64,000 nucleotides of DNA from Escherichia phage vB_EcoM_RZ. The notes below the pieces were generated by a model, which was not told the origin of the DNA, did not search any database, and worked only from the letters and a program-made list of their open reading frames with translations. The position numbers were made by a program, and so were the translations under genes. Shown piece by piece: positions 3,863 to 46,966 of the stretch. Within the stretch, counting starts at the first letter, position 1; every line of letters starts with the position of its first letter. Location: the sequence record MW598459. One strand, given 5' to 3'.

Positions 3863-5194
3863 TCATAGAGCCTCCAAATCATTAAGGTATTCAGTTTTAA
3901 CATCAGTTGTCTTCCAGTACTCATGCTCAGCTTTCTTAGCCTTTGCTTCGTCTGCAAGCTTCTTGGCTTCATCAGAGGTCATATGGTAGATGTTCATCGC
4001 CACTAACTTCTCTGCATAATCGCCATATATTTCACTCGCCTGGAGTTCCTCAATCAACTTCTTACGAGGTTTCCCTTGGATAACAACCTTACCGTCAATC
4101 ACTTCTTTAATAAAGAAGACTTTTGCCCGGGCCAGTTTAAACGCTGCTTCAGTTTCTTTAATCTTACTGTCAATTCGCACTTGAACATAAGTCTTACGAA
4201 CATCAACGAAATCGCGAATCAGGTCAAGCGTGTTGGTGTATTCGGCCAGTTTGCCTTTGTGATTAAGCACCGTTAAGTTCTGGGAGAGCTTCTCAATCAG
4301 ACCAAAGTCTTTCATGATTTTCTCATGATTTTCTTGTTCAGTACCATCCAGCTTGTATTCTTTGCGGAATTTAATCTTAAACCCAAAACCATGCTCGCCA
4401 CAGTTATCTTTCCAGGTGATAAAACCTTTCTCTTCCAGCGGGTCCAGGATTTTACTTGTATACTTTTCCAGGTTCCATTGGACCGGAATTTCAGTAATTT
4501 CCATTTGGGTCCTGGAAGTCATTTTGTATGTGCCATGAAGCTCATACTTACCAGGCTCTTCCAGCTCAACCACTTCACCACGGAATTCTGGATATTTTAC
4601 TTTCGGAGCAACCGGCTCACGACCTTCCACGATAGCTTTAACAGCTTCCTTGACGTCCTGGAACGAATGAGGAAGAATATCAGTAGCGAAGCCAACAGCA
4701 ATCCCAGAAGTGGCGTTAAGTAATACAGTAGGAATAACAGGAAGATAAAAAGCAGGAGGCTTATGTTCTTCATCAGGATGGACCGGAGCATATTCTGTAT
4801 CCTTAAACAAGTTATAAAAGTTCTTTGAAACCCTTGCGAATACATAACGAGCTGATGATGCTTCTGGCACCATTCTGGAACCAAAGTTGCCTTGCCCATC
4901 AAACATGGGGTATTCATTTTTATATGTTGCGACCAGACCAGAAGTTGCTTCTTCCGCTGATGCTTCGCCGTGGTGATAACCATAATCAGCTACGCCACCT
5001 GCGATGGATGCAACTTTATGGAATTTATTCTTATCACCACGAGCCAGGTCTAATGCTCTCGCCATAACAAATCTGTGAACTGGTTTAAAACCATCAATCA
5101 TGTTTGGGATGGCACGACCTTCCACAGTGTAGATAGCATATGACAATGCTTCCACGTCAATAATGTCTTTTAAATCACGTTTATTCAGTTGCAT
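3863..5194 (-). CDS. 52: DNA topoisomerase II medium subunit (GyrA-like)
   Basis: 443 aa; matches recalled T4 gp52 (442 aa). Confidence 0.93.
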   Translation of the reverse strand: MQLNKRDLKDIIDVEALSYAIYTVEGRAIPNMIDGFKPVHRFVMARALDLARGDKNKFHKVASIAGGVADYGYHHGEASAEEATSGLVATYKNEYPMFDGQGNFGSRMVPEASSARYVFARVSKNFYNLFKDTEYAPVHPDEEHKPPAFYLPVIPTVLLNATSGIAVGFATDILPHSFQDVKEAVKAIVEGREPVAPKVKYPEFRGEVVELEEPGKYELHGTYKMTSRTQMEITEIPVQWNLEKYTSKILDPLEEKGFITWKDNCGEHGFGFKIKFRKEYKLDGTEQENHEKIMKDFGLIEKLSQNLTVLNHKGKLAEYTNTLDLIRDFVDVRKTYVQVRIDSKIKETEAAFKLARAKVFFIKEVIDGKVVIQGKPRKKLIEELQASEIYGDYAEKLVAMNIYHMTSDEAKKLADEAKAKKAEHEYWKTTDVKTEYLNDLEAL

Positions 5195-5335
5195 ATTTTT
5201 ACCATATCAGTGAATGTACTGCCATTATAGCATCAGAAATAAAAAGCACAACCTGCACTAATGCAAACATAACTCCATAATACAGCGCTACCAATAAGGC
5301 AGCAAGGGCTAATGAATAGCCCAAGATTTTCTTAA

Positions 5336-9082: not shown

Positions 9083-10057
9083 TTAGAATTGTTCAGTTAC
9101 ATCATCAAGGACCAGGTAACCACAGACCCGCATTTTGGAATCGTTATAATCAACCGGGATACTTACAACATCACGCGGGTGAACTTTACAGGATACGATG
9201 CGTCCATCACCATGACCAAACCCACTTCCGATATAGCCTTTAGAGCAAACATGCAGACCAGTTGAACAAGTCTGTTCGTCATTGTCATTCACACGAGAGC
9301 GCGGCATTTTAACATATTGACCAGGGCTGTTGTCGAATGTGTTTGAGTGGCAATCTTTGTAAGTTGCACGAACCATTTTCCATGCGATGAAATGACCGTC
9401 TTCGGTGATTTCGATATCGTTTGCAACCAGGAAGTCAAACAAACGCTGTACAGCTTTCTCACTCGGGTTCTCAAGGAGATTCTCAAGGAACGGCAGATAG
9501 AATTCAAAGTCTTCGCCATTTTGCATTGAATCAATGATACGAGTAACCAGGCCGGAGCGCAGTTCAATTCCCTGATAGAACAAACTACCACCTTCAATAC
9601 GCACATCACCTTTCACATATTTTTGTACTGCAGCTTTGATTGAGATAAACTCGATAGCATCATCAAAACGAGATTCTTTGAGTGCCTGGATAATAGCATC
9701 AAAGTGTTTATGGTCTTTTGTTGCGTTCCAGACCGTACGGCCTTCGGTGATGGAAACGAACTTGCTTGATGCGTTCCATACGATTTCTGGGCGGCTACCG
9801 CCGATTGTACCTTCAGCAACCGGGACTTCAACCGTTACTGTCACCGGGGCATTAATCGCCACACCAGCGGCTGCTTTTAGTGATGCAGAAATGGTTTTAG
9901 CTAATTTTGATTCTTTATCATTTTTCAAAACGCGGCGAATGGTGTCAACGGACACAGCAAAATATTCTGCCAATTCAGGCTGGGTATAATTGCCCGTTGA
10001 ATACATCTGGACCACATCAGCTTGTTCGGCTTTAGACATACATTTGATATTAAACAT
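9083..10057 (-). CDS. rIIB: rIIB protein
   Basis: 324 aa; N-terminus MFNIKCMSKAEQADVVQMYSTGNYTQPELAEYFAVSVDTIRRVLK matches recalled T4 rIIB. Confidence 0.9.
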   Translation of the reverse strand: MFNIKCMSKAEQADVVQMYSTGNYTQPELAEYFAVSVDTIRRVLKNDKESKLAKTISASLKAAAGVAINAPVTVTVEVPVAEGTIGGSRPEIVWNASSKFVSITEGRTVWNATKDHKHFDAIIQALKESRFDDAIEFISIKAAVQKYVKGDVRIEGGSLFYQGIELRSGLVTRIIDSMQNGEDFEFYLPFLENLLENPSEKAVQRLFDFLVANDIEITEDGHFIAWKMVRATYKDCHSNTFDNSPGQYVKMPRSRVNDNDEQTCSTGLHVCSKGYIGSGFGHGDGRIVSCKVHPRDVVSIPVDYNDSKMRVCGYLVLDDVTEQF

Positions 10058-10058
10058 A

Positions 10059-11072
10059 TTATTCCTTATTGGCCGCTTCCACGGCCTTCATGATTTGAGC
10101 AACGTTCTGTACTTGTTCAGTTGACATAGCGTTACGGTTATATAAAAAGTGTGAAACAATCGGGTGATTCTTTTCAAATTCAAAAACCATTTTATCGCTT
10201 GTTACCGAAGCGTTTTTGGTCAGGTCGTCATAAATCTTATTACAAAGGACCAGAGTTTCCTGCATGGTCTTATCAACTGTTCCACTGTTATATGCGTTAT
10301 AAGCAAAGAACTTATTGAACTGCATTAATTCGGCATAGTCAGTATTCACATCTTTCTGAACATCTTTTGCATAAAAATACTTGAACATAAAATTCAGTTC
10401 TGCATATTCAGACAGGATAGGAATATAATAACGCGAACGGCTTGAAGCGGCAATGTACTGGTCCGCATCAACCGCATCAATCAATTCCACATAACGATTG
10501 ACTGCAGCTTCAATCAGACAATCACACTGCGCCAGCTTGGTAATCTTTTTCTGAAGCTGTGGACGAATAACACAGAATTCATTGATTTCCAACAGGTTTG
10601 CCAGTTTACACAATGTCTGGGTCCCGAAGGTCGTGGTGCCATATTCTTGATTCAACGGGGAAATGCTACTGCGGTTAATGAATACAGCATAACCATCGAT
10701 TTCCTCTGCATCAGCTGCACATGTAAATTCTTCAACAGACTGCCAGCGACCATTGGTTTTAGTCCAACGAATCACCGATGGAGTCTTTGACTTAACACGC
10801 TCTTTCGGGTCCGCAACCGGAATCCAGTCTTTTACAAGGGCGGTCAGTTCAGACGTACGATAGATATTAACCGTATCGCCTTTAAATCGTTCCTGGAGTT
10901 GAACCATCAACCGTGTTTGAATTTCGCTGGTTGGGTCAACGAACAATAGACTACTACCTTGTACAGTCGGGACTTTACCAGAGGCTTTGAGCTTTTTGGC
11001 TTTCGCGCTGGTGTCATACAGCATTGAACTGATGCCCCGTCGCAATTCGCCCTTTAGCATCGTCAATAACAA
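10059..11072 (-). CDS. rIIA: rIIA protein, C-terminal part (frame-shifted relative to the N-terminal part)
   Basis: 337 aa ORF directly downstream of the rIIA N-terminal ORF, overlapping it by 59 nt in another frame. Confidence 0.7.
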
Positions 11073-12288
11073 TGTTCAAGGTATCATTCTGAATACCAAA
11101 CATGCTCGTCAGACTTGCAGTATTCGTGTTCGAGCTTGAGTTACGCAGACGTTTCAGACGGGTAGTGCTATAGATATCATAGACAACCCCGGCATTAATA
11201 AGGTCTTTGTCCAGCTCGAACATTTCGTACATCTGGTTAAAAGTCAGTTGTGATTTTGTAAATTTCGTTTCAGCATTACGAGCTTTCAGAAAATTACGAG
11301 CTTCATAATTCAGATTCTGTAATTCGCGATACGTGTGGCGGATACATTCTGATTCCTGCCATTTCTTACAATCATCTTCCATGACCTTCTTATCAAGCGA
11401 TTCAATACGTTCAATGATATTTGCGACCGTACGTTTGTCCAGTGATAATGCTTCGCGAGAAGGTGCAATATCCAACGAACCCATCGGGAACTTAATAAAG
11501 ACAACATCATTTTTGGCGGTCATCCAGGTTTTCTTTGTATAACCGTCACCAATCGGATAAACAATACCGCCGTAAATTGCATAAAGTCCATAACGTTCTG
11601 GGCTGCTATAATCAATACGCGCTGGAGCATAATAATCATCAAATTCTGGGAAGTAATTAATTTCGCCTGCACCTTGCACTTCAGCCAGTCCAGCAAATGG
11701 ACGCATGATATATGCAATCTCGTAGCGGAACTTACCAAAATCATTACTATCAACCGGGACAACAACTTCAATCCCTGTGCGGTCACCAGGTTTCATTGGT
11801 TCGCTAAAGGTTGGCTTAATCTGTGGACCATCGCCGTCCATATAAGCGACATAACCATTAACTTGCCCATCATGATATGAAATCAGGCTAAACGTCTCTG
11901 TATAACTAAACGGAGATTTAGAACCCAGACCAAAGCCACCAATAAAATCGTTGGATTCCGCCTTGGATGATGCAAAGAAACTGTTATACAGACCTGGGGT
12001 ATTTTCATCACCACGAATCTGGAAATCACTCATACCTGGACCAAAGTCACGGCATACAAAACGTGGGTCCAGTTCACCAGGAGCTTGCACAATGAATTTA
12101 TCCTGGCAGCCATTGAGCATATGAGCATCAATCATATTGGTAATCAGCTCACGGACAACCGCGCGCACCTTGTTTGTATAAAGGTCGCTGGTCAGAATCT
12201 TAAACACCTTTGGAGATGCCTGGATTGTGAATGCTGATGCCTTGGCACCATTACCAAGGATTGTTTCCTTTTCAGTTTCTAAAATCAT
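11014..12288 (-). CDS. rIIA: rIIA protein, N-terminal part
   Basis: 424 aa; ...[31 protein letters not shown]....FGPGMSDF...[21 protein letters not shown] matches recalled T4 rIIA N-terminus. Confidence 0.85.
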
Positions 12289-12295
12289 GTTTTTC

Positions 12296-12505
12296 TCACT
12301 TTATGTTACGTTTGATTAATTCTGCAACTTCAAGAAGTTCATCCTTTGTTGCGGTGTCTGAAGCTATTTTAATACGGATTTCTTTGAAGCGTTCTTTAAA
12401 CTCTTCAGCTTCTCTTATATCAAAAAATCGTTGGATAACACGGTATTCTTTATGGATAGCCTTATCAAACAGTTCCATATTAACTTTGAAGTTCGTCATT
12501 TCCAA
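12296..12505 (-). CDS. Hypothetical protein (69 aa; rIIA.1 position)
   Basis: ORF between gene 39 and rIIA. Confidence 0.45.
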
Positions 12506-12764
12506 TCTCCTGCAATATTTTTCTCATACTACGCATGGTAGCTTTATGTTCTTGGCCATGGTATATCAATGCAAGGAGTGCTTCAATTCGCTCCTCAGGG
12601 ACCTTCTGGCCAGTCTTAATGCTCATGGCTGATGCTCTTACAGCCAACAAGTAACTTCGCTTCCTGTCGCTATCTGGGAGCTCCTGCACCTTCCTCAGGC
12701 CTGCTTCCATAATACAACGAGCAACATTCTGTAGATTAACTAAACTTCCGTCAGACATAATCAT
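12480..12764 (-). CDS. Hypothetical protein (94 aa)
   Basis: ORF between gene 39 and rIIA. Confidence 0.45.
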   Translation of the reverse strand: MIMSDGSLVNLQNVARCIMEAGLRKVQELPDSDRKRSYLLAVRASAMSIKTGQKVPEERIEALLALIYHGQEHKATMRSMRKILQEIGNDELQS

Positions 12765-13035: not shown

Positions 13036-14874
13036 TTATAGCGTCGCATTCATCCAGTCTTTACGCTGCTGGGAATCTTTACCGAATAGCATTTCGAACA
13101 GTTCTTTCCAGTTGTCGGGCAATTGAACAACTTCGAATACCGGTTCGAGCAATACGCGTTTGTACTCGGAATCTTCCAGAGAACCAAGCCCCTTGATATA
13201 TCGGATGGTGTGCTTCGGAAGTTTATCCTTAGCTTCTTCATAGTCAGGAAGAGAATAGAACCATTCTTGTTTATCTTTGAGCTGTGCAATAATAACAGGA
13301 GTTTTCACAAAGCGAATTCGTCCTTCATGGAACAGCTCTGGCCAGTTACTGAAAAACGCCAATAACGATGGATAGATACTACCGACACCATCCACATCCG
13401 CATCTGTCATGATAGCAATGTTTCGGTAATTCATATTCTCGGCCGGTTGTCCAATCGTTAAACCAGTAATCGCACACACATCAAAGGCTTCGGCGTTCTT
13501 CATAACGTCAACAGCTTTCAGACCCCATGTGTTTTTGAACTTACCACGTAACGGATAAGCACCTTGTAATTCACGGTCGCGGACCTTGATAAATGGACCG
13601 GTTGCAGAATCACCTTCGGTCAGGAACAGAGTCGTTTCCAGCTTATCATTGCCCCATTCGTTGGCCTTGATATGCTTTTGCACCTTGGCCTTTGAAGCTT
13701 TCTTATTCGCCTTGGTCTCTGCTGCTTTCTCTGCAGCCAATTTACGAGCTAATGCAGCTTCAATAATGGGCATCAGAATAGCTTCTGTTTTTAACAGCGA
13801 GCTCGCCAACTTTTTACCATCAACCTGGATATGTGATTTAATTTCGCCAGCCGGAGAAGTCAATCGCTCCTTGGTCTGGGAGTCAAATCGCATATTTTTC
13901 ATATTGCGAATAAACATCAACAATGTAATACATTCTTTAACACGCGCTTTGGTTACTTCAATTTTATACTTGCGTTTAATTGCTGGGATTAACACATCAC
14001 ACATTTCATCCATAACACATTCAATATGGTGACCACCATTTTTTGTGTGGATGTTGTTGACGTAAGTCAGATGTCTGAATCCGTCAGGTGACCGACCGAT
14101 TGCAATTGAGCAATTATCTTGTTCCTGGATAATGATTTCATCATCATATTGTTTAGCAAACTTTTTAAACTGACCTTGTACCTTTTTACCATTGAATTTG
14201 AATTCAATATCAGGATAAACAACAGCAAGAGTCTGCAGACGGTCAAGAGTAATATCCAGATAAATTTTATCAAAACTGTTCATTTCAAAATGGCTAAAGT
14301 CTGGAATAAACTCAACCTTGGTGCCATTGGATTTGGTCGGTTTGATTTTCCATGATACATTATCGGCGTTATTTGAACAACTTACACGAAGCTCATTTTT
14401 ACCGTCAGATGTGGTCCCCGTAAAAAGGATTGAAAAAATATTAGTAAGACTTGAACCCACACCATTTTGGCCACCGGTCACACGTTCTTTGTCATCACCG
14501 AAATTCCCACCCGCTTTGGTTTTCGTCCAGGCCGCCACCGGTCCAGGCAATTCTTCCCCTTCTGGGGTTACGACAACAGCTTGTGGAATACCACGGCCAT
14601 TATCTTCAACAGTAACTTTGTTATCAGTCAAAGAAATATCAACGGAAATTTTATTGGCAAATTTGAAATTTGTACGTATAGCTTCATCAACCGAGTTGTC
14701 AATAATCTCATCAACTAGTTTTAATACACCCGCCACATAAGATACTTTAGTATATTCACCAAATAAAAATCTTTCGTATTCTTCATATGAAACACTTCCT
14801 ATGTACATTCCCGGACGTTTCAAACAATGGTCTTTATCTGAAAGCATTTCAATTTTATTTTCAATCATAATCAA
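13036..14874 (-). CDS. 39: DNA topoisomerase II large subunit (GyrB-like), apparently fused gp39+gp60
   Basis: 612 aa single ORF; N-terminus ...KRPGMYIGS... typical of type II topoisomerase ATPase subunits; T4 splits this across genes 39 and 60. Confidence 0.92.
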   Translation of the reverse strand: MIMIENKIEMLSDKDHCLKRPGMYIGSVSYEEYERFLFGEYTKVSYVAGVLKLVDEIIDNSVDEAIRTNFKFANKISVDISLTDNKVTVEDNGRGIPQAVVVTPEGEELPGPVAAWTKTKAGGNFGDDKERVTGGQNGVGSSLTNIFSILFTGTTSDGKNELRVSCSNNADNVSWKIKPTKSNGTKVEFIPDFSHFEMNSFDKIYLDITLDRLQTLAVVYPDIEFKFNGKKVQGQFKKFAKQYDDEIIIQEQDNCSIAIGRSPDGFRHLTYVNNIHTKNGGHHIECVMDEMCDVLIPAIKRKYKIEVTKARVKECITLLMFIRNMKNMRFDSQTKERLTSPAGEIKSHIQVDGKKLASSLLKTEAILMPIIEAALARKLAAEKAAETKANKKASKAKVQKHIKANEWGNDKLETTLFLTEGDSATGPFIKVRDRELQGAYPLRGKFKNTWGLKAVDVMKNAEAFDVCAITGLTIGQPAENMNYRNIAIMTDADVDGVGSIYPSLLAFFSNWPELFHEGRIRFVKTPVIIAQLKDKQEWFYSLPDYEEAKDKLPKHTIRYIKGLGSLEDSEYKRVLLEPVFEVVQLPDNWKELFEMLFGKDSQQRKDWMNATL

Positions 14875-15582
14875 TTATTCCTTGCTTTGTTTCAAGTATT
14901 CTATCGCGGTTTCTAATGAAGCAATATTGTCTTTAAACATGCCCAAGCCTATATTGCATTTTGAGCATAAAATACCCCGGACTTTACCAGTTGAATGACA
15001 GTGGTCTACATTGAACCAAGTGCTTTTTGATAAAGAAGTCGAATTGTTTGTTAGTTTTATTTTACAAATTTCACAATACGGAGTATCCTCAATTAACTTC
15101 AAAACGTCGCGCTTTTTCATCTTTATGGAATGACTATATGGCAAGTCCAGTGATTGAGTATCTCTTGCTTCTTTACCACAGGAATCTGAACAATATTTTT
15201 GAGTCCTATTCGTAGCCGTATACTTAGTATCACACACAGGACAAATACGCTCTTCTTCAAATATCCCACCACCCTGGCATTTAACGGAACAAAATTCATG
15301 GTAACCAGTAGCAAATGTGTGATAGTTAACAGGTTTACCGCACTTACATAAAACTTTTCCTTTTATATCATGTAAAATACGATAACAGACCTCATTATAT
15401 GGGTGTTGGTCTCTTTTACCTCCTTGACAATGCAGTGCTTCTGTTCTAAAGACATTTGCTTCTTCTGGATATTTTTCCCAGAATTTTTTGGCAAATTCTA
15501 AATCATTTTTAAACAAATTACCGTTAAGACGATTCGGGTTCTTAGTTAAAAGATTTTCTTCAATAAATTGTTTTAAGTTCAT
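14875..15582 (-). CDS. Endonuclease VII-like His-Me finger nuclease with Cys-rich N-terminus (putative freestanding homing endonuclease)
   Basis: C-terminal NVDHCHSTGKVRGILCSKCNIGLG parallels DHDHELNGPKAGKVRGLLCNLCN of gp49 in this window; track start is GTG, ATG at 15582 preferred. Confidence 0.65.
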   Translation of the reverse strand: MNLKQFIEENLLTKNPNRLNGNLFKNDLEFAKKFWEKYPEEANVFRTEALHCQGGKRDQHPYNEVCYRILHDIKGKVLCKCGKPVNYHTFATGYHEFCSVKCQGGGIFEEERICPVCDTKYTATNRTQKYCSDSCGKEARDTQSLDLPYSHSIKMKKRDVLKLIEDTPYCEICKIKLTNNSTSLSKSTWFNVDHCHSTGKVRGILCSKCNIGLGMFKDNIASLETAIEYLKQSKE

Positions 15583-15588
15583 GGAGGT

Positions 15589-15613
15589 ATTATAAGTCAC
15601 ATATTTTAAAGCA
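15589..15613 (-). promoter_or_regulatory. Putative T4 middle promoter (MotA box TGCTTTA, 12 nt, TATAAT)
   Basis: Minus strand TTTTGCTTTAAAATATGTGACTTATAAT immediately upstream of the nuclease gene. Confidence 0.45.
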
Positions 15614-25317: not shown

Positions 25318-25361
25318 AGTATTCTCCTCTGTAATTGAAATAATTATACCACTTCTATTAA

Positions 25362-25390
25362 AAGCAAAAAGGGAACCCGAAGGTTCCCTA
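25362..25390 (-). terminator. Rho-independent terminator downstream of soc
   Basis: GGGAACCC-GAA-GGTTCCC hairpin followed by T-run on the minus strand. Confidence 0.6.
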
Positions 25391-25393
25391 TAA

Positions 25394-25627
25394 TTAAACT
25401 ACTGGGGTAGGCGTAAACATCGCCGCGTTCTTAGTTCGCCAATCAGCTGCACTAGACGCTACGGTGACATAAGCGGCCTTTTCGGAAGGAAAAGTCTGAT
25501 AGTGTGCATTCGCAATACGATGCTCATTTGAATAGATTTCAAACGGAACAGATACTTCAACACCTTTAACTTCTTTACCTTCACCAGCTGGATGCGTAAA
25601 GGTTTTGATATTAACGAAACCACCCAT
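25394..25627 (-). CDS. soc: Small outer capsid protein Soc
   Basis: 77 aa; VNIKTF...ANAHYQTFPSEKAAY matches recalled T4 Soc. Confidence 0.85.
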   Translation of the reverse strand: MGGFVNIKTFTHPAGEGKEVKGVEVSVPFEIYSNEHRIANAHYQTFPSEKAAYVTVASSAADWRTKNAAMFTPTPVV

Positions 25628-25668
25628 AATTAACTCCTTTGTTGTTTAATTACGGGTGTATTTATAAC

Positions 25669-26205
25669 TTAATAACCCCGGTCCTGACGAGCAAAGTTCT
25701 CGGCATTTTTCAGGTAATACAGTTTAAAGATTTCTTCTGCAGTCAGTCCAAGGCCGTGGAACATGTTCAGAACAAAGTGCAGGATATCAATCATCTCAAA
25801 TTTAATTTCGAGCTGGTCTTCGGGAGACAACTCATCAATACGACGATTACGGAATTCAGCATGTTGGACTTTCCAAGGCTTCCATACACTAGATGCAGCT
25901 TTCTCGCCATTAGACATACCACCGAGAGAAGTCAGAAGTTCACGGAATTCGTCGTCGACATAATCTTTCTGGTTACGAAGCCATGCAACAACATCACCTG
26001 CAGTAGCCAATTCATCTGGATGTGAGTTATATTCTGGTTTTTCAGTAGCCAGACGAACTTGCAATGATTTCTGCATATCAAGCATAATCTGCAGCGGGTC
26101 AGTACCTTTTGTAATCGCATTGTCATAAGCTTCTTCAGCTTTATCAACACCAGCAATCAGTTGGGAACACTCGTTAAAATGAGCCATTATATTTTTCCTT
26201 ATCAA
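25669..26205 (-). CDS. 56: dCTP pyrophosphatase gp56 (MazG-like)
   Basis: 178 aa; position next to soc; similarity to recalled T4 gp56. Confidence 0.8.
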   Translation of the reverse strand: MIRKNIMAHFNECSQLIAGVDKAEEAYDNAITKGTDPLQIMLDMQKSLQVRLATEKPEYNSHPDELATAGDVVAWLRNQKDYVDDEFRELLTSLGGMSNGEKAASSVWKPWKVQHAEFRNRRIDELSPEDQLEIKFEMIDILHFVLNMFHGLGLTAEEIFKLYYLKNAENFARQDRGY

Positions 26206-26271
26206 TTCATATTGTTTGTATGTTAATTATATCGTATTGGTTTGAAGCATAAATACAAGAAAGGAGGATGT

Positions 26272-26469
26272 ATGCTCAAACTATCTAGTCTAATTCAAGC
26301 CATCAAAGGCAGTCGTAAGCGAACGATTCTGGTCCTTTCGATACTCTGTTTTGTTCTACTCTGGAATTTCATTGTTGCCCCTATTGCATTGGCACATGGT
26401 GTTATATTGCCAGTCGTCGCGCTCGAATCAGTTGTAGATGTTTCACTAGCATTAATCGGCCTTATATAG
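26272..26469 (+). CDS. Small membrane protein on the plus strand (65 aa)
   Basis: Strong SD AAAGGAGG 6 nt before ATG 26272; hydrophobic; ORF 26242-26469 trimmed to the SD-linked ATG. Confidence 0.5.
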   Translation: MLKLSSLIQAIKGSRKRTILVLSILCFVLLWNFIVAPIALAHGVILPVVALESVVDVSLALIGLI

Positions 26470-30739: not shown

Positions 30740-30766
30740 GAAAAAGGGGCTGTAAGCCCCTTTATT
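30740..30766 (-). terminator. Rho-independent terminator
   Basis: GGGGC-TGTAA-GCCCC hairpin flanked by A and T runs. Confidence 0.55.
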
Positions 30767-30769
30767 CAC

Positions 30770-31072
30770 TTACGCCAACTCATAGTTGTGCATAGTCAGA
30801 CAACGAATTTTCCCAGTAGTTGGGTGCATAACAGTCACACTAATTGTGTAATCATCACACACGTTAACAAAAGGTTCAGCGATAACATATACTGCCCCGC
30901 CTGCAAGCAGATACTCACGAAGAGAGCTGCGAACAGATGAAGGTTGAACATCGCTTTTGAGCTTTATTAATTTACCAGTTTGAATGCCTGATGCGATAAG
31001 AGCAGCACAGTTTTCATCACGGCGAGCGAACTGACCAAAATAGTAACGGTTCATATCGGTTTGATTAAACAT
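30770..31072 (-). CDS. Hypothetical protein (100 aa)
   Basis: ORF downstream of an early promoter. Confidence 0.45.
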   Translation of the reverse strand: MFNQTDMNRYYFGQFARRDENCAALIASGIQTGKLIKLKSDVQPSSVRSSLREYLLAGGAVYVIAEPFVNVCDDYTISVTVMHPTTGKIRCLTMHNYELA

Positions 31073-31114
31073 ATGGTTTTCCTTTTAACAGTTGGTTTAT
31101 TGTGTAACTCAGTA

Positions 31115-31152
31115 TGGAATCATTATGTCCTAAGACAAGGGGCTTGTACACT
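31115..31152 (-). promoter_or_regulatory. T4-type early promoter
   Basis: Minus strand TGTACA, 16 nt, CATAAT, leader GATTCCATACTGAGTTACAC. Confidence 0.5.
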
Positions 31153-31399
31153 ATTTTAATTCATTAATTAAATGAAAATCTTGTGCATTGAAAGTAATGA
31201 AAAAATAATCATTCCCTTCAACTGAAGCATGACAGGCAACACTACACCAACGCCTTGCTCTGTTCAAGGAGCAATCCAAAATTTTAAAAGGCTTCAGACC
31301 AACAATGGCAGCTGTTCTTTTATTATGCTCACAAATATCAGCATACTTTTGGAGAGCTTCTTCAGATTTGAACTGGTAATGCACATTAACTAATAACAT
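31151..31399 (-). CDS. Hypothetical protein (82 aa)
   Basis: ORF preceded by leader hairpin. Confidence 0.45.
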   Translation of the reverse strand: MLLVNVHYQFKSEEALQKYADICEHNKRTAAIVGLKPFKILDCSLNRARRWCSVACHASVEGNDYFFITFNAQDFHLINELK

Positions 31400-31419
31400 T
31401 TTATTATCCTCATCAGTAG

Positions 31420-31462
31420 TTGATGGGATAATAGTACACCCTTTTTATGGTGATGTAAACAC
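31420..31462 (-). promoter_or_regulatory. T4-type early promoter
   Basis: Minus strand GTTTAC (31460-31455), about 17 nt, TACTAT, then CCCATCAACTACTGATGAGGA leader. Confidence 0.5.
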
Positions 31463-31469
31463 CCTAAAT

Positions 31470-31492
31470 GAAAAAGACCCGAAGGTCTTTAG
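31470..31492 (-). terminator. Rho-independent terminator downstream of gene 41
   Basis: GACC-CGAA-GGTC hairpin with flanking A and T runs. Confidence 0.5.
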
Positions 31493-41863: not shown

Positions 41864-42055
41864 TTAATCAAAGTATTCATATGCGAACCAGGCATTGTGT
41901 CTGTTCGCGATTATTTTAACATATTCTTCACCGAAAGCGTTTTGCAAGTCACGTTCAGTGACAAGGTGTTCATCTTTCGAAAAGGTATTAACTAACACAT
42001 ACCGTTTAATTTCAGGGACAGCCAATAAATGCTGCCCGGTTAAGAAGTCAGCCAT
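41864..42055 (-). CDS. Hypothetical protein (63 aa)
   Basis: ORF in minus-strand array. Confidence 0.4.
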   Translation of the reverse strand: MADFLTGQHLLAVPEIKRYVLVNTFSKDEHLVTERDLQNAFGEEYVKIIANRHNAWFAYEYFD

Positions 42056-42090
42056 AATAGCCTCTATTATAACATCCTTGTTTTAAAACA

Positions 42091-43773
42091 TTATTCCATA
42101 ACAGTGAATCGACCAACTTTTTTCATCTGGAGATGTTGTCCGTATGCTTCCGGGTCATGGTCTCGGTGACTGATGATAAAGATGTTGGTGTCTTCCAATT
42201 TGTTCAGGATGGTAGCAATTGCTTTAACACCCTCTACGTCAGTGGCCGAGTCAAAAACTTCATCCAGAATCAATGTGTTAATATTAACACCAGATACTTT
42301 CGCAGCAATATCGCGCCATGTAAACAGCAATGCAATATCTATACGAGCTTTTTCGCCCTGGCTAAATGATGCATAACTAAAGTCTTCACGACCACGAGAT
42401 TTAATCGTTTCGTTGAACTCTTCATCTAACGTAAAGCTATAATCAGCTTCCATAACTTTAAGATAAGCGTTTATCTGCTTATTAAAGATAGGAATATATT
42501 TCTTAATAATCGCGCCCTTAATACCAGAATCTTTCAACATATCCGTTAAGATACCACGTTGATATTTTTCCATCACAAGGTCGGATTTTTGTTTGACTAT
42601 TTTATCAAGCTGGTCTTGAAGCATTTTAATGTCTGCTGCATGGTCAATAAATTCCGACTTAGCTTGCTCGATTAATGCTTTAACCTTTTTAGCTTTTTCG
42701 ACAGTCTGGACTAAGGTTTGTTTCTTAGTTTGAATGTCTTGAGCTATTGTACGCTGGTTTTGTCTTGCCTTGGTATACGCATCAAATTGCTCTTGAACAG
42801 CATTCTGGCGAGCTTTATGCTTATCAGCTGATGCATTACATTCTTCAATCTTTGACTCAATCCTGGCGACAATAGGGTCTCCTGGATGCAACTGACTGGC
42901 ACAAGTCTGACAACAACCGCCCTTCTCGTACAGACCAACAACCTTTCGGTAATCGTCAATCTTCGATTTAATCAGGAATGATTCCTGCTTTAACTTTGTG
43001 AGTTCGTGCTCGGGGTCTTCTCCCAAAATTATCTCGGTCAGTCTTGTTGTTGCTTCTTCGATAGTTGTCTTGATTCCACGTGCTTCTGTAGCAAGTTCAT
43101 CATACATCGTTTGCAGCCGCAACAGATTATCACCTGACAATTTTCTTTGACGGTCTTCGTTGTCCTGATAGATTTTAATCTGTTGAACGATACCGTCATG
43201 CTGTACATCCATAACCTGGATTTGGCTATTGACTTCGCGGATAAGAGATTTGTTCAGCTTATCCATATCGGCCAGTACAGAAACCTCTAAAAGGTCTTCG
43301 ACAAGCTTTCTTCTGGCAGGAGTGGATAGGCCCATAAAAGGGGTATATCCAGCTGTGCCGAGTACGACAATTTGTTTGAAACTGGCGTATGACATTCCGA
43401 TAAGCTGTTCAAATTCCGCTTGGAAGTCTTTACTGCTGGCAGATTCATCAAGACGTTTACCGCCACAAGAGATTTCAAAAACATTGGGTTTTTGCCCGCG
43501 TTTGATATAGTATTCTTTTCCATCATATTCCATCCACAATTCAACGAGCATATCTTTTTTGTTGCTCGAGTTAATCAACTGGCCTTTCTTTACATCACGG
43601 AAAGGCTTACCGAACATAGCAAAGGTAACCGCTTCAAGGAACGTAGATTTACCCGCGCCATTCTTGCCGGTGACCAGAGTTTTCTGGACTTTATCCAGTT
43701 CAACAGTAATCGGTTGAGCACCAACCGACATAATATTTTTATAGATAACTTTCTTAAGCTTAAAAGTCTTCAC
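42091..43773 (-). CDS. 46: Recombination endonuclease subunit gp46 (Rad50/SbcC-like)
   Basis: 560 aa; Walker A GKNGAGKST, coiled-coil middle, zinc hook CCQTC. Confidence 0.93.
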   Translation of the reverse strand: MKTFKLKKVIYKNIMSVGAQPITVELDKVQKTLVTGKNGAGKSTFLEAVTFAMFGKPFRDVKKGQLINSSNKKDMLVELWMEYDGKEYYIKRGQKPNVFEISCGGKRLDESASSKDFQAEFEQLIGMSYASFKQIVVLGTAGYTPFMGLSTPARRKLVEDLLEVSVLADMDKLNKSLIREVNSQIQVMDVQHDGIVQQIKIYQDNEDRQRKLSGDNLLRLQTMYDELATEARGIKTTIEEATTRLTEIILGEDPEHELTKLKQESFLIKSKIDDYRKVVGLYEKGGCCQTCASQLHPGDPIVARIESKIEECNASADKHKARQNAVQEQFDAYTKARQNQRTIAQDIQTKKQTLVQTVEKAKKVKALIEQAKSEFIDHAADIKMLQDQLDKIVKQKSDLVMEKYQRGILTDMLKDSGIKGAIIKKYIPIFNKQINAYLKVMEADYSFTLDEEFNETIKSRGREDFSYASFSQGEKARIDIALLFTWRDIAAKVSGVNINTLILDEVFDSATDVEGVKAIATILNKLEDTNIFIISHRDHDPEAYGQHLQMKKVGRFTVME

Positions 43774-45452: not shown

Positions 45453-45694
45453 CCAATTAATACACCATACAGAGGTTCGCGATTAGACTTGAACTTGATT
45501 TTCTTATGGGTAATAGTACCTTCATTTTCTGCTTTAATACGAGCGGCTTCAAATTGAAGTATCATCTCATTTTTGTCAGATTTAATCTTATCAAAATCCG
45601 TCGAATTCGTCATTCATATAGCCTCTTAAACTTTTTCGTATTCGTCATTCATAAGTTTAAAAATCCGGGTGTTCGTCTTCAAAGCAACCGATAT

Positions 45695-46443: not shown

Positions 46444-46966
46444 CTTCTTTATCTTTGGCGCTCTTATCAGACCCTGGCGCTTTAACTAAAGAGGATTCGT
46501 ACTGTGTCATTTTGTCATAGATGTCCTGGATAAATGTTTCATCAGCCAGAGCCACCATATCGTCGTCACGTGAATCATACACGTTATGAACGAAGTAGCT
46601 ATATTTCTTTGCCATTTCTTTACGTTCTTTTTTGATACGCTGAACGAAAGCATTGAAGCAAGCCATTGTTATGTAAGCATGTGGATTATCGTATTTTGTT
46701 TCGTCGAAGTTATGAAGACCTTTTATTGCGGCCTCAATTCCATCCGCTATCATTTCTTGCTTCCAGGATTGGGTATATCCGGAGAAGTTGAAACGTTTGC
46801 TAAGACCTTCGGCTATAAGCATAATTGCCAGGCCAATAACATCGTTCTGGCGAATAATTTTGTTCGGGTCGGTGTTCGCATTCAGCTTCTGTTTCCACTC
46901 CGAAATAGCTTTCAAAAGCTCTTTATTATTTACATAGTTATTCTTGGTTAATTTAATTTCGTTCAT
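46409..46966 (-). CDS. 55: Late-transcription sigma factor gp55
   Basis: 185 aa; matches recalled T4 gp55 length and N-terminus. Confidence 0.9.

Follow-up and report, generated by a model that had tools for sequence, protein, structure and literature searches.

A five-nucleotide deletion splits the rIIA gene in the genome record of Escherichia phage vB_EcoM_RZ

The DNA analysed here, referred to below as the window, is a stretch of 64,000 nucleotides (nt) from Escherichia phage vB_EcoM_RZ (hereafter RZ; sequence record MW598459), whose RefSeq genome, NC_070780.1, comprises 170,318 base pairs (PMC13602300). By megablast, the window belongs to Gaprivervirus, a T4-like genus, alongside VR7, VR20, SP18, DK-13 and the TH series, with a best identity of 97.5% over the gene under study, rIIA. 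In RZ this gene occupies two overlapping open reading frames (ORFs) instead of one. We consider it quite probable that the split reflects a genuine and recent deletion of five bases, TGATT, at codons 417-418 of an ancestral rIIA of 744 codons, and that RZ is most likely rIIA-null with rIIB still expressed.

Two rIIA reading frames and the bases missing between them

The interrupted gene comprises the following features, with positions given in the window and lengths of products in amino acids (aa).

11014..12288, minus strand: 5' fragment of rIIA, an ORF of 424 aa (ORF listing; PHROG 612; match to DK-13)
10059..11039, minus strand: 3' portion of rIIA in the original downstream frame, homologous from R419 (CGG at 11039-11037) to the stop codon
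11039..11040: deletion junction at which five bases are lost, TGATT on the gene strand and AATCA on the plus strand (alignments with relatives)
11035..11038: run of four C on the plus strand (C4) and four G on the minus strand (G4), singled out in the preliminary description; its length is that of intact relatives and it is not the lesion

The upstream ORF encodes 416 native residues followed by eight out-of-frame ones (TGHQFNAV) and closes at a TGA stop at 11016-11014. For the downstream piece, the longest ORF begins with a TTG and spans 10059..11072 (337 aa), the gene call on Logan contigs covers 10059-11060 (333 aa), and the GenBank coding sequence (CDS), which begins MLYD, covers 10059-11024 (321 aa). 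The ORF listing confirms the coordinates that the preliminary description had given for the two frames, 11014..12288 and 10059..11072; both are on the minus strand, in different frames, and they overlap by 59 nt. On the gene strand the overlap reads GCGACGGGGCATC, in which the GGGG at 11038-11035 is the CCCC of the plus strand, and a longer stretch through the same region reads GCTAAAGGGCGAATTGCGACGGGGCATCAGTTCAATGCTGTATGAC.

Both ORFs match a single RIIA family profile, PHROG 612 ('RIIA lysis inhibitor', 725 positions), the upstream one over positions 1-414 (expectation value (E) 9e-169) and the downstream one over positions 429-724 (E 3e-56). Compared with the intact rIIA protein of DK-13, the upstream ORF corresponds to residues 1-416 and the downstream one to 419-744, with an identity of about 98.8% in both cases. 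Because these matches run end to end along one profile and one DK-13 protein, the two ORFs are abutting pieces of one rIIA and not a chance arrangement, which bears out the earlier view of a single gene interrupted by a frameshift. A Pfam search gave neither the two rIIA halves nor rIIB a family at E ≤ 0.001. The pieces combined cover the PHROG profile over its whole length, and a single frame of about 725-746 codons is lacking, the frame being broken at codon 417. RZ rIIA is a disrupted allele of a RIIA family gene. The split itself is already public, since both pieces are annotated in the RZ record: the 424-aa product is identical to UGL59844.1/YP_010650865.1 and the 321-aa product, with its MLYD start, is 100% identical to UGL59843.1/YP_010650864.1, both under the GenBank and RefSeq label 'RIIA lysis inhibitor'.

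Comparison with the relatives locates the lesion. A blastn alignment with DK-13 shows a five-base deletion in the window, AATCA, at 11040. On the gene strand the relatives read GCG ATG ATT CGK GGY ATC (A M I R G I) and the window reads GCG A/CG GGG CAT C, the slash marking the junction, so that codons M417-I418 are removed and the reading frame is shifted. The corresponding stretch measures 306 nt in 32 of 32 matching relatives against 301 nt in the window, and full-length megablast matches to rIIA span 2235 nt (2241 in VR7) against 2230. The rIIA genes extracted from 19 relatives are all open, with 744-746 codons. Intact Gaprivervirus rIIA genes (VR7, VR20, SP18, DK-13, TH44 and others) resemble that of RZ in nucleotide identity (93-97.5%), in the protein identity of each half and in having the same neighbours, and differ from it in forming a single ORF, whereas RZ lacks TGATT and is split.

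The frameshift had been attributed to the C4 homopolymer, with a homopolymer sequencing error as one of two options, and neither proposal survives this comparison. CGGGGC with four G's also occurs in TH44, EAWsc9, M719 and MN01, all intact with a frame of 744 codons, and at the junction the window differs from these four solely by the absent TGATT. The remaining relatives carry CGTGGT or CGTGGC at the same site, which are synonymous for Arg-Gly. Judged by these alignments, the G4 run is an ordinary synonymous Arg-Gly variant of unaltered length, and the lesion is the adjacent loss of five bases. An error in homopolymer length is rejected, as the run is equal in the four intact relatives and the lost TGATT is neither homopolymeric nor repetitive. 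The companion remark that removing one base would join the two frames holds arithmetically, ...GRIATG then leading into ISSMLYD... in a protein of 742 aa (2229 nt). The ancestral sequence is not regained in this way, however: such a repair would yield ...IATGISS..., compared with the ancestral ...IAMIRGISS....

A broader form of the artefact explanation holds that the real phage has an intact rIIA and that the five bases were lost in silico, during sequencing or assembly. We regard this as very unlikely. It is true that the break occurs in a single deposited genome, with 32 relatives lacking it, and that a short G run adjoins it. The length of this run in the four intact relatives and the composition of TGATT speak against such an origin, as does the presence of the same junction in the GenBank record and in three Logan contigs. 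The latter were assembled separately from public read sets of at least two runs (SRR22742172 and SRR22742164 were identified), and all three, like the GenBank/RefSeq record, carry the truncated product of 424 aa together with its out-of-frame tail. Contig SRR22742172_961686 is 100% identical to the window over 7275 nt, and contig SRR22742164_1173077 is 100% identical over 4311 nt. Resequencing had been suggested as the check on the split; these separately assembled read sets give the same broken frame and not a continuous one, and the recurrence of the five-base deletion in them supports the other option raised at the outset, a genuine rII frameshift allele. A literature search for the SRR accessions found no paper citing either run. 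The RZ-identical contigs come from read sets with contig numbers up to about one million, which suggests that the samples are complex rather than pure phage preparations.

The remainder of the window was also compared with DK-13, which revealed 71 indels. Outside rIIA, every indel of a length not divisible by three either sits in a divergent patch, where it is compensated a few bases away, or is located at the end of a gene or between genes. Counterparts were identified in the window for 96 DK-13 ORFs with a minimum length of 90 aa, and in this set no annotated gene other than rIIA is split. Because no other uncompensated frame-breaking indel falls in a conserved gene across the 64 kilobases (kb), the assembly is not generally indel-prone, which is a further point against an artefact; sequencing error thus appears an unlikely cause of the rIIA split.

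Translation of the split gene and the modelled protein

The gene has a ribosome-binding site of its own, GAGAAAAACATG. Translation from the normal start would give the 424-aa product, consisting of the GHKL-type ATPase region, part of the middle region and eight wrong residues, and would stop at the TGA, which lies 957 nt ahead of rIIB. Beyond the break, 326 codons up to the end of the gene stay open in another frame, served by no ribosome-binding site. Downstream-frame ATGs occur at 11060 and 11024, and neither is preceded by a purine-rich ribosome-binding site; a promoter and terminator scan of 9900-12600 was no richer than shuffled sequence and so does not point to an internal promoter from which the C-terminal fragment could be expressed. 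This fragment would be made in trace amounts at most, if ribosomes restarted at the ATG located eight bases ahead of the stop or, rarely, slipped by +1 (GGG-C).

In the alignment, the break falls within a block, NIVIDDxKxR[VI]xx[VI]RG[LI], that is conserved from Gaprivervirus to T4. Its structural setting was taken from a model of the Dhakavirus rIIA homologue, which is 55% identical to the Gaprivervirus protein over the full length. The mean predicted local distance difference test score (pLDDT) of this model is 64.9, with the first 170 residues below 50, and the underlying alignment is shallow and consists mostly of near-identical T4-type homologues; only the well-predicted segment 361-490 was used in placing the deletion. 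In the model, the deletion maps to a helix at 413-425 that follows a strand at 402-407, in the middle of this best-predicted region (pLDDT 80-91). The predicted position of the cut is inside a folded alpha/beta unit and not in a linker.

A fold search of the Protein Data Bank (PDB) with the same model returned only GHKL proteins, namely Hsp90/TRAP1/HtpG, GyrB/ParE, Topo VI-B and MutL (best E 6e-8, probability 1.0), at template-modelling scores (TM-scores) of no more than 0.24 and with low confidence in the N-terminal region of the model. The likeness of RIIA to the GHKL ATPases lies in these being the sole folds matched. It does not extend to sequence, where similarity is negligible, a search of solved structures giving only a marginal match to HSP90 (E 0.28), and we know of no chaperone or topoisomerase activity of RIIA. 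The GHKL assignment of the RIIA N-terminus rests mainly on the literature (PMC7824862), in which the protein is described as a GHKL ATPase, with an N-terminal GHKL domain and a C-terminal region that varies, and the fold matches to Hsp90, GyrB and MutL are consistent with it. Loss of RIIA function in RZ is likely, given the break in the conserved block, the modelled helix and the lack of a ribosome-binding site for the C-terminal piece.

Restart near nonsense codons is familiar from the T4 rIIB literature, and it raises the prospect of a functional split gene, in which the 424-aa N-terminal fragment assembles with a C-terminal fragment of about 321 aa produced by termination-reinitiation at the ATG at 11024. 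This ATG (11024-11022) is in the C-terminal frame and no more than 10 nt away from the TGA (11016-11014), both halves are undecayed, and both are annotated as CDSs in GenBank. Undecayed halves, however, are equally expected of a very recent null. The arrangement is absent from all 32 relatives and is therefore not a maintained architecture, two residues of the conserved block are lost, the cut lies in a predicted helix of a compact unit, and the C-terminal fragment has no ribosome-binding site. On balance we find a functional split gene distinctly unlikely.

Programmed recoding, in which ribosomes reading the 59-nt overlap would shift by +1, at ACG-GGG-C for instance, and produce a RIIA of 742 aa, is scarcely conceivable. 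The shift needed is indeed +1, and the overlap contains GGG followed by C, where tRNA-Gly could re-pair two of three positions. Yet the frame break is derived and private (0 of 32 relatives) and is not a conserved feature. The overlap contains neither a +1 motif of the CUU-UGA-C type nor an upstream element resembling a Shine-Dalgarno sequence, and the G run places neither a stop nor a rare codon in the A site. Local folding, computed with DNA parameters for both the ancestral and the derived sequence, is no better than that of shuffles. The 742-aa product, moreover, would still lack the conserved M-I-R residues.

Neighbouring genes and other differences from DK-13

The interrupted gene lies between two neighbours on the same strand.

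9083..10057, minus strand: rIIB, 324 aa, intact (PF26926 Phage_T4_rIIB; UGL59842.1)
12296..12499, minus strand: rIIA.1, a small gene directly upstream of rIIA (PF24210 T4_RIIA1), used as a synteny marker

The two rII genes are tightly packed, the rIIA stop TAA (10061-10059) being followed by one base and then by the rIIB ATG (10057). rIIB has its own AAGGA ribosome-binding site, which sits within the last rIIA codons (sequence aataAGGAataatATG; the ribosome-binding site is AAGGAATAATATG), and its initiation looks independent of rIIA translation. On the other side, rIIA.1 is also present on Logan contig SRR22742172_961686, where positions 2790-2993 correspond to 12499-12296 of the window, and it is likewise annotated in VR20, SP18 and VR7. 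The gene order topoisomerase gp39 - rIIA.1 - rIIA - rIIB is kept in RZ and is the same in VR20, SP18, VR7 and DK-13. The holin gene t is intact in RZ.

The topoisomerase II large subunit (13036-14874, minus strand) is encoded by one ORF of 612 aa with HATPase_c, DNA_gyraseB and TOPRIM_C domains. The counterparts of T4 genes 39 and 60 thus form one fused gene in RZ, with no translational bypass of the gene-60 type. Directly upstream of it lies an ORF of 241 aa (14875-15600, minus strand) with a C-terminal Endonuclease_7 domain (PF02945, E 5e-18). The approximately 700 nt that hold this ORF (14873-15580) have no DK-13 counterpart, and the ORF probably represents an inserted free-standing homing endonuclease gene. 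At the 5' end of the gene for gp52, the topoisomerase medium subunit (5183-5199, minus strand), a cluster of indels amounts to a net -19 nt relative to DK-13. The open frame of gp52 in the window ends at 5206, so that gp52 has a different N-terminus or start site here than is annotated in DK-13, likely as a difference in start site or annotation.

Other differences between the two phages concern whole segments. A 'putative homing endonuclease' of DK-13 (42309-42929) is absent from the window at 42046-42093, and about 1 kb of DK-13 with two hypothetical genes (25329-26380) is absent at 25666. The comparison indicates presence/absence mosaicism of mobile genes between the close relatives RZ and DK-13. 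In the other direction, about 725 nt of the window (30764-31487, minus strand), just downstream of a gp41-like helicase gene, have no collinear counterpart in DK-13 and contain two small ORFs of 100 aa (30770-31072) and 82 aa (31151-31399). Compared with DK-13, the window has 14 extra nt inserted at 45680; they would change the C-terminus encoded by a small hypothetical gene (DK-13 46516-46716), whose 3' end is about 8 nt away.

Age, origin and meaning of the RZ allele

Besides the deletion, RZ rIIA carries six private substitutions in 2230 nt, five of them at third codon positions, compared with a range of 0-8 in close relatives. Because private substitutions are few and both halves are equally conserved, the deletion arose recently on the timescale over which these phages diverged. 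An exact scan of IMG/VR for the junction gave no matches, and a degenerate pattern matching either allele detected the intact one three times in IMG/VR and once in JGI metagenomes, and the deleted one not at all. As to how the bases were lost, slipped-strand deletion between direct repeats is rejected, the placement being unique (A/TGATT/C) with no flanking microhomology. A hairpin or quasi-palindrome origin was likewise rejected, since the ancestral CGAAT-N7-ATTCG stem folds like shuffles (z about 0).

Two settings can be proposed for the mutation. Spontaneous r-type mutants with larger plaques may have been picked or enriched during isolation or propagation, or rIIA may have been lost under selection in nature. 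Since the plaques of spontaneous r mutants are larger and phages can do without rII on hosts that are not lysogenic, a laboratory origin would be favoured. Adaptive loss, with an rIIA-null selected in the wild by a host defence that senses rII and an allele that circulates in nature, has a precedent in T6, which escapes a gasdermin/CARD defence triggered by RIIB through frameshift and nonsense mutations in rIIB (bioRxiv 10.1101/2023.05.28.542683). Contigs identical to RZ, in addition, occur in read sets that look like complex samples. The published trigger is, however, RIIB and not RIIA, and rIIB is intact in RZ. The deleted allele was not found in IMG/VR or the JGI metagenomes, and the Logan samples could simply hold laboratory phage. 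We judge natural adaptive loss exceedingly unlikely. The wider proposition, that the broken rIIA either circulates naturally and pays off against an rII-sensing defence or works as a two-piece RIIA made by restart, is unlikely. If it were true, RZ would provide a natural handle on the roles of the N-terminal ATPase part of RIIA versus its C-terminal part.

The rII system is reportedly that of Benzer's classical T4 mutants, and the frameshift logic of Crick and Brenner is said to come from the neighbouring rIIB. RZ resembles the T4 rIIA mutants in several respects: the gene is orthologous, with a full-length match to PHROG 612 and the shared synteny from gp39 to rIIB; a small out-of-frame indel leaves a truncated A product and an intact B cistron; and a nearby change of -1 or +2 would restore the frame, as classical suppressors do. 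Such ordinary suppressors should exist. RZ differs from these mutants in that its allele comes from the deposited genome of a 'wild-type' isolate and not from a selected mutant. The gene is also diverged, Gaprivervirus rIIA being about 51% identical to the T4 type over the full length and 63% over the N-terminal part.

Phage contingency loci are homopolymers of at least six bases, and T4 rIIA has an A6 run in which changes of +/-1 occur (bioRxiv 10.1101/2025.10.21.683753). As in these loci, a frameshift inactivates rIIA and a homopolymer lies close by in RZ. Unlike them, the RZ run has four bases (G4) and shows no change of +/-1 in length, and the lesion is a non-repetitive deletion of 5 nt. 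Because it falls outside the definition of a contingency locus, reversion at a high rate is not expected.

Both rIIA and rIIB are needed by T4 and T6 on RexAB lambda lysogens, and their loss leads to rapid lysis on B (PMC9391042; bioRxiv 10.1101/2025.10.21.683753; PMC6832632). By analogy, RexAB-type (lambda lysogen) defence would be expected to exclude RZ, and lysis on B-type hosts to be rapid.

Several points weigh against a genuine rIIA-null allele with this phenotype. The three Logan contigs may share one laboratory stock, and would then attest the reproducibility of the sequence and not its independent natural occurrence. Neither of the mutational mechanisms considered accounts for the deletion (no microhomology, and a hairpin no better than shuffles), and complementation between the two pieces is compatible with the computed data. 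Phenotype data for RZ were not found in the searched literature, where RZ serves as a reference genome, and, to our knowledge, rIIA function has been tested only in T-even phages and not in Gaprivervirus.

As a recent deletion that most likely abolishes RIIA, the RZ allele is a textbook-type rII frameshift in a well-known gene and opens no new question. Its significance lies in the fact that Gaprivervirus phages with a proposed therapeutic use are compared against the RZ RefSeq genome (PMC13602300). This reference, NC_070780.1, carries a disrupted counter-defence gene, which calls for correction and caution: its two 'RIIA lysis inhibitor' CDSs should be annotated as a single pseudogene or disrupted gene. 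For the biology of these phages, the allele is one more example of easy rII loss when a phage is propagated on permissive hosts, and the host range of RZ on lysogens and RexAB-type hosts, as well as its lysis timing, may not represent the genus.

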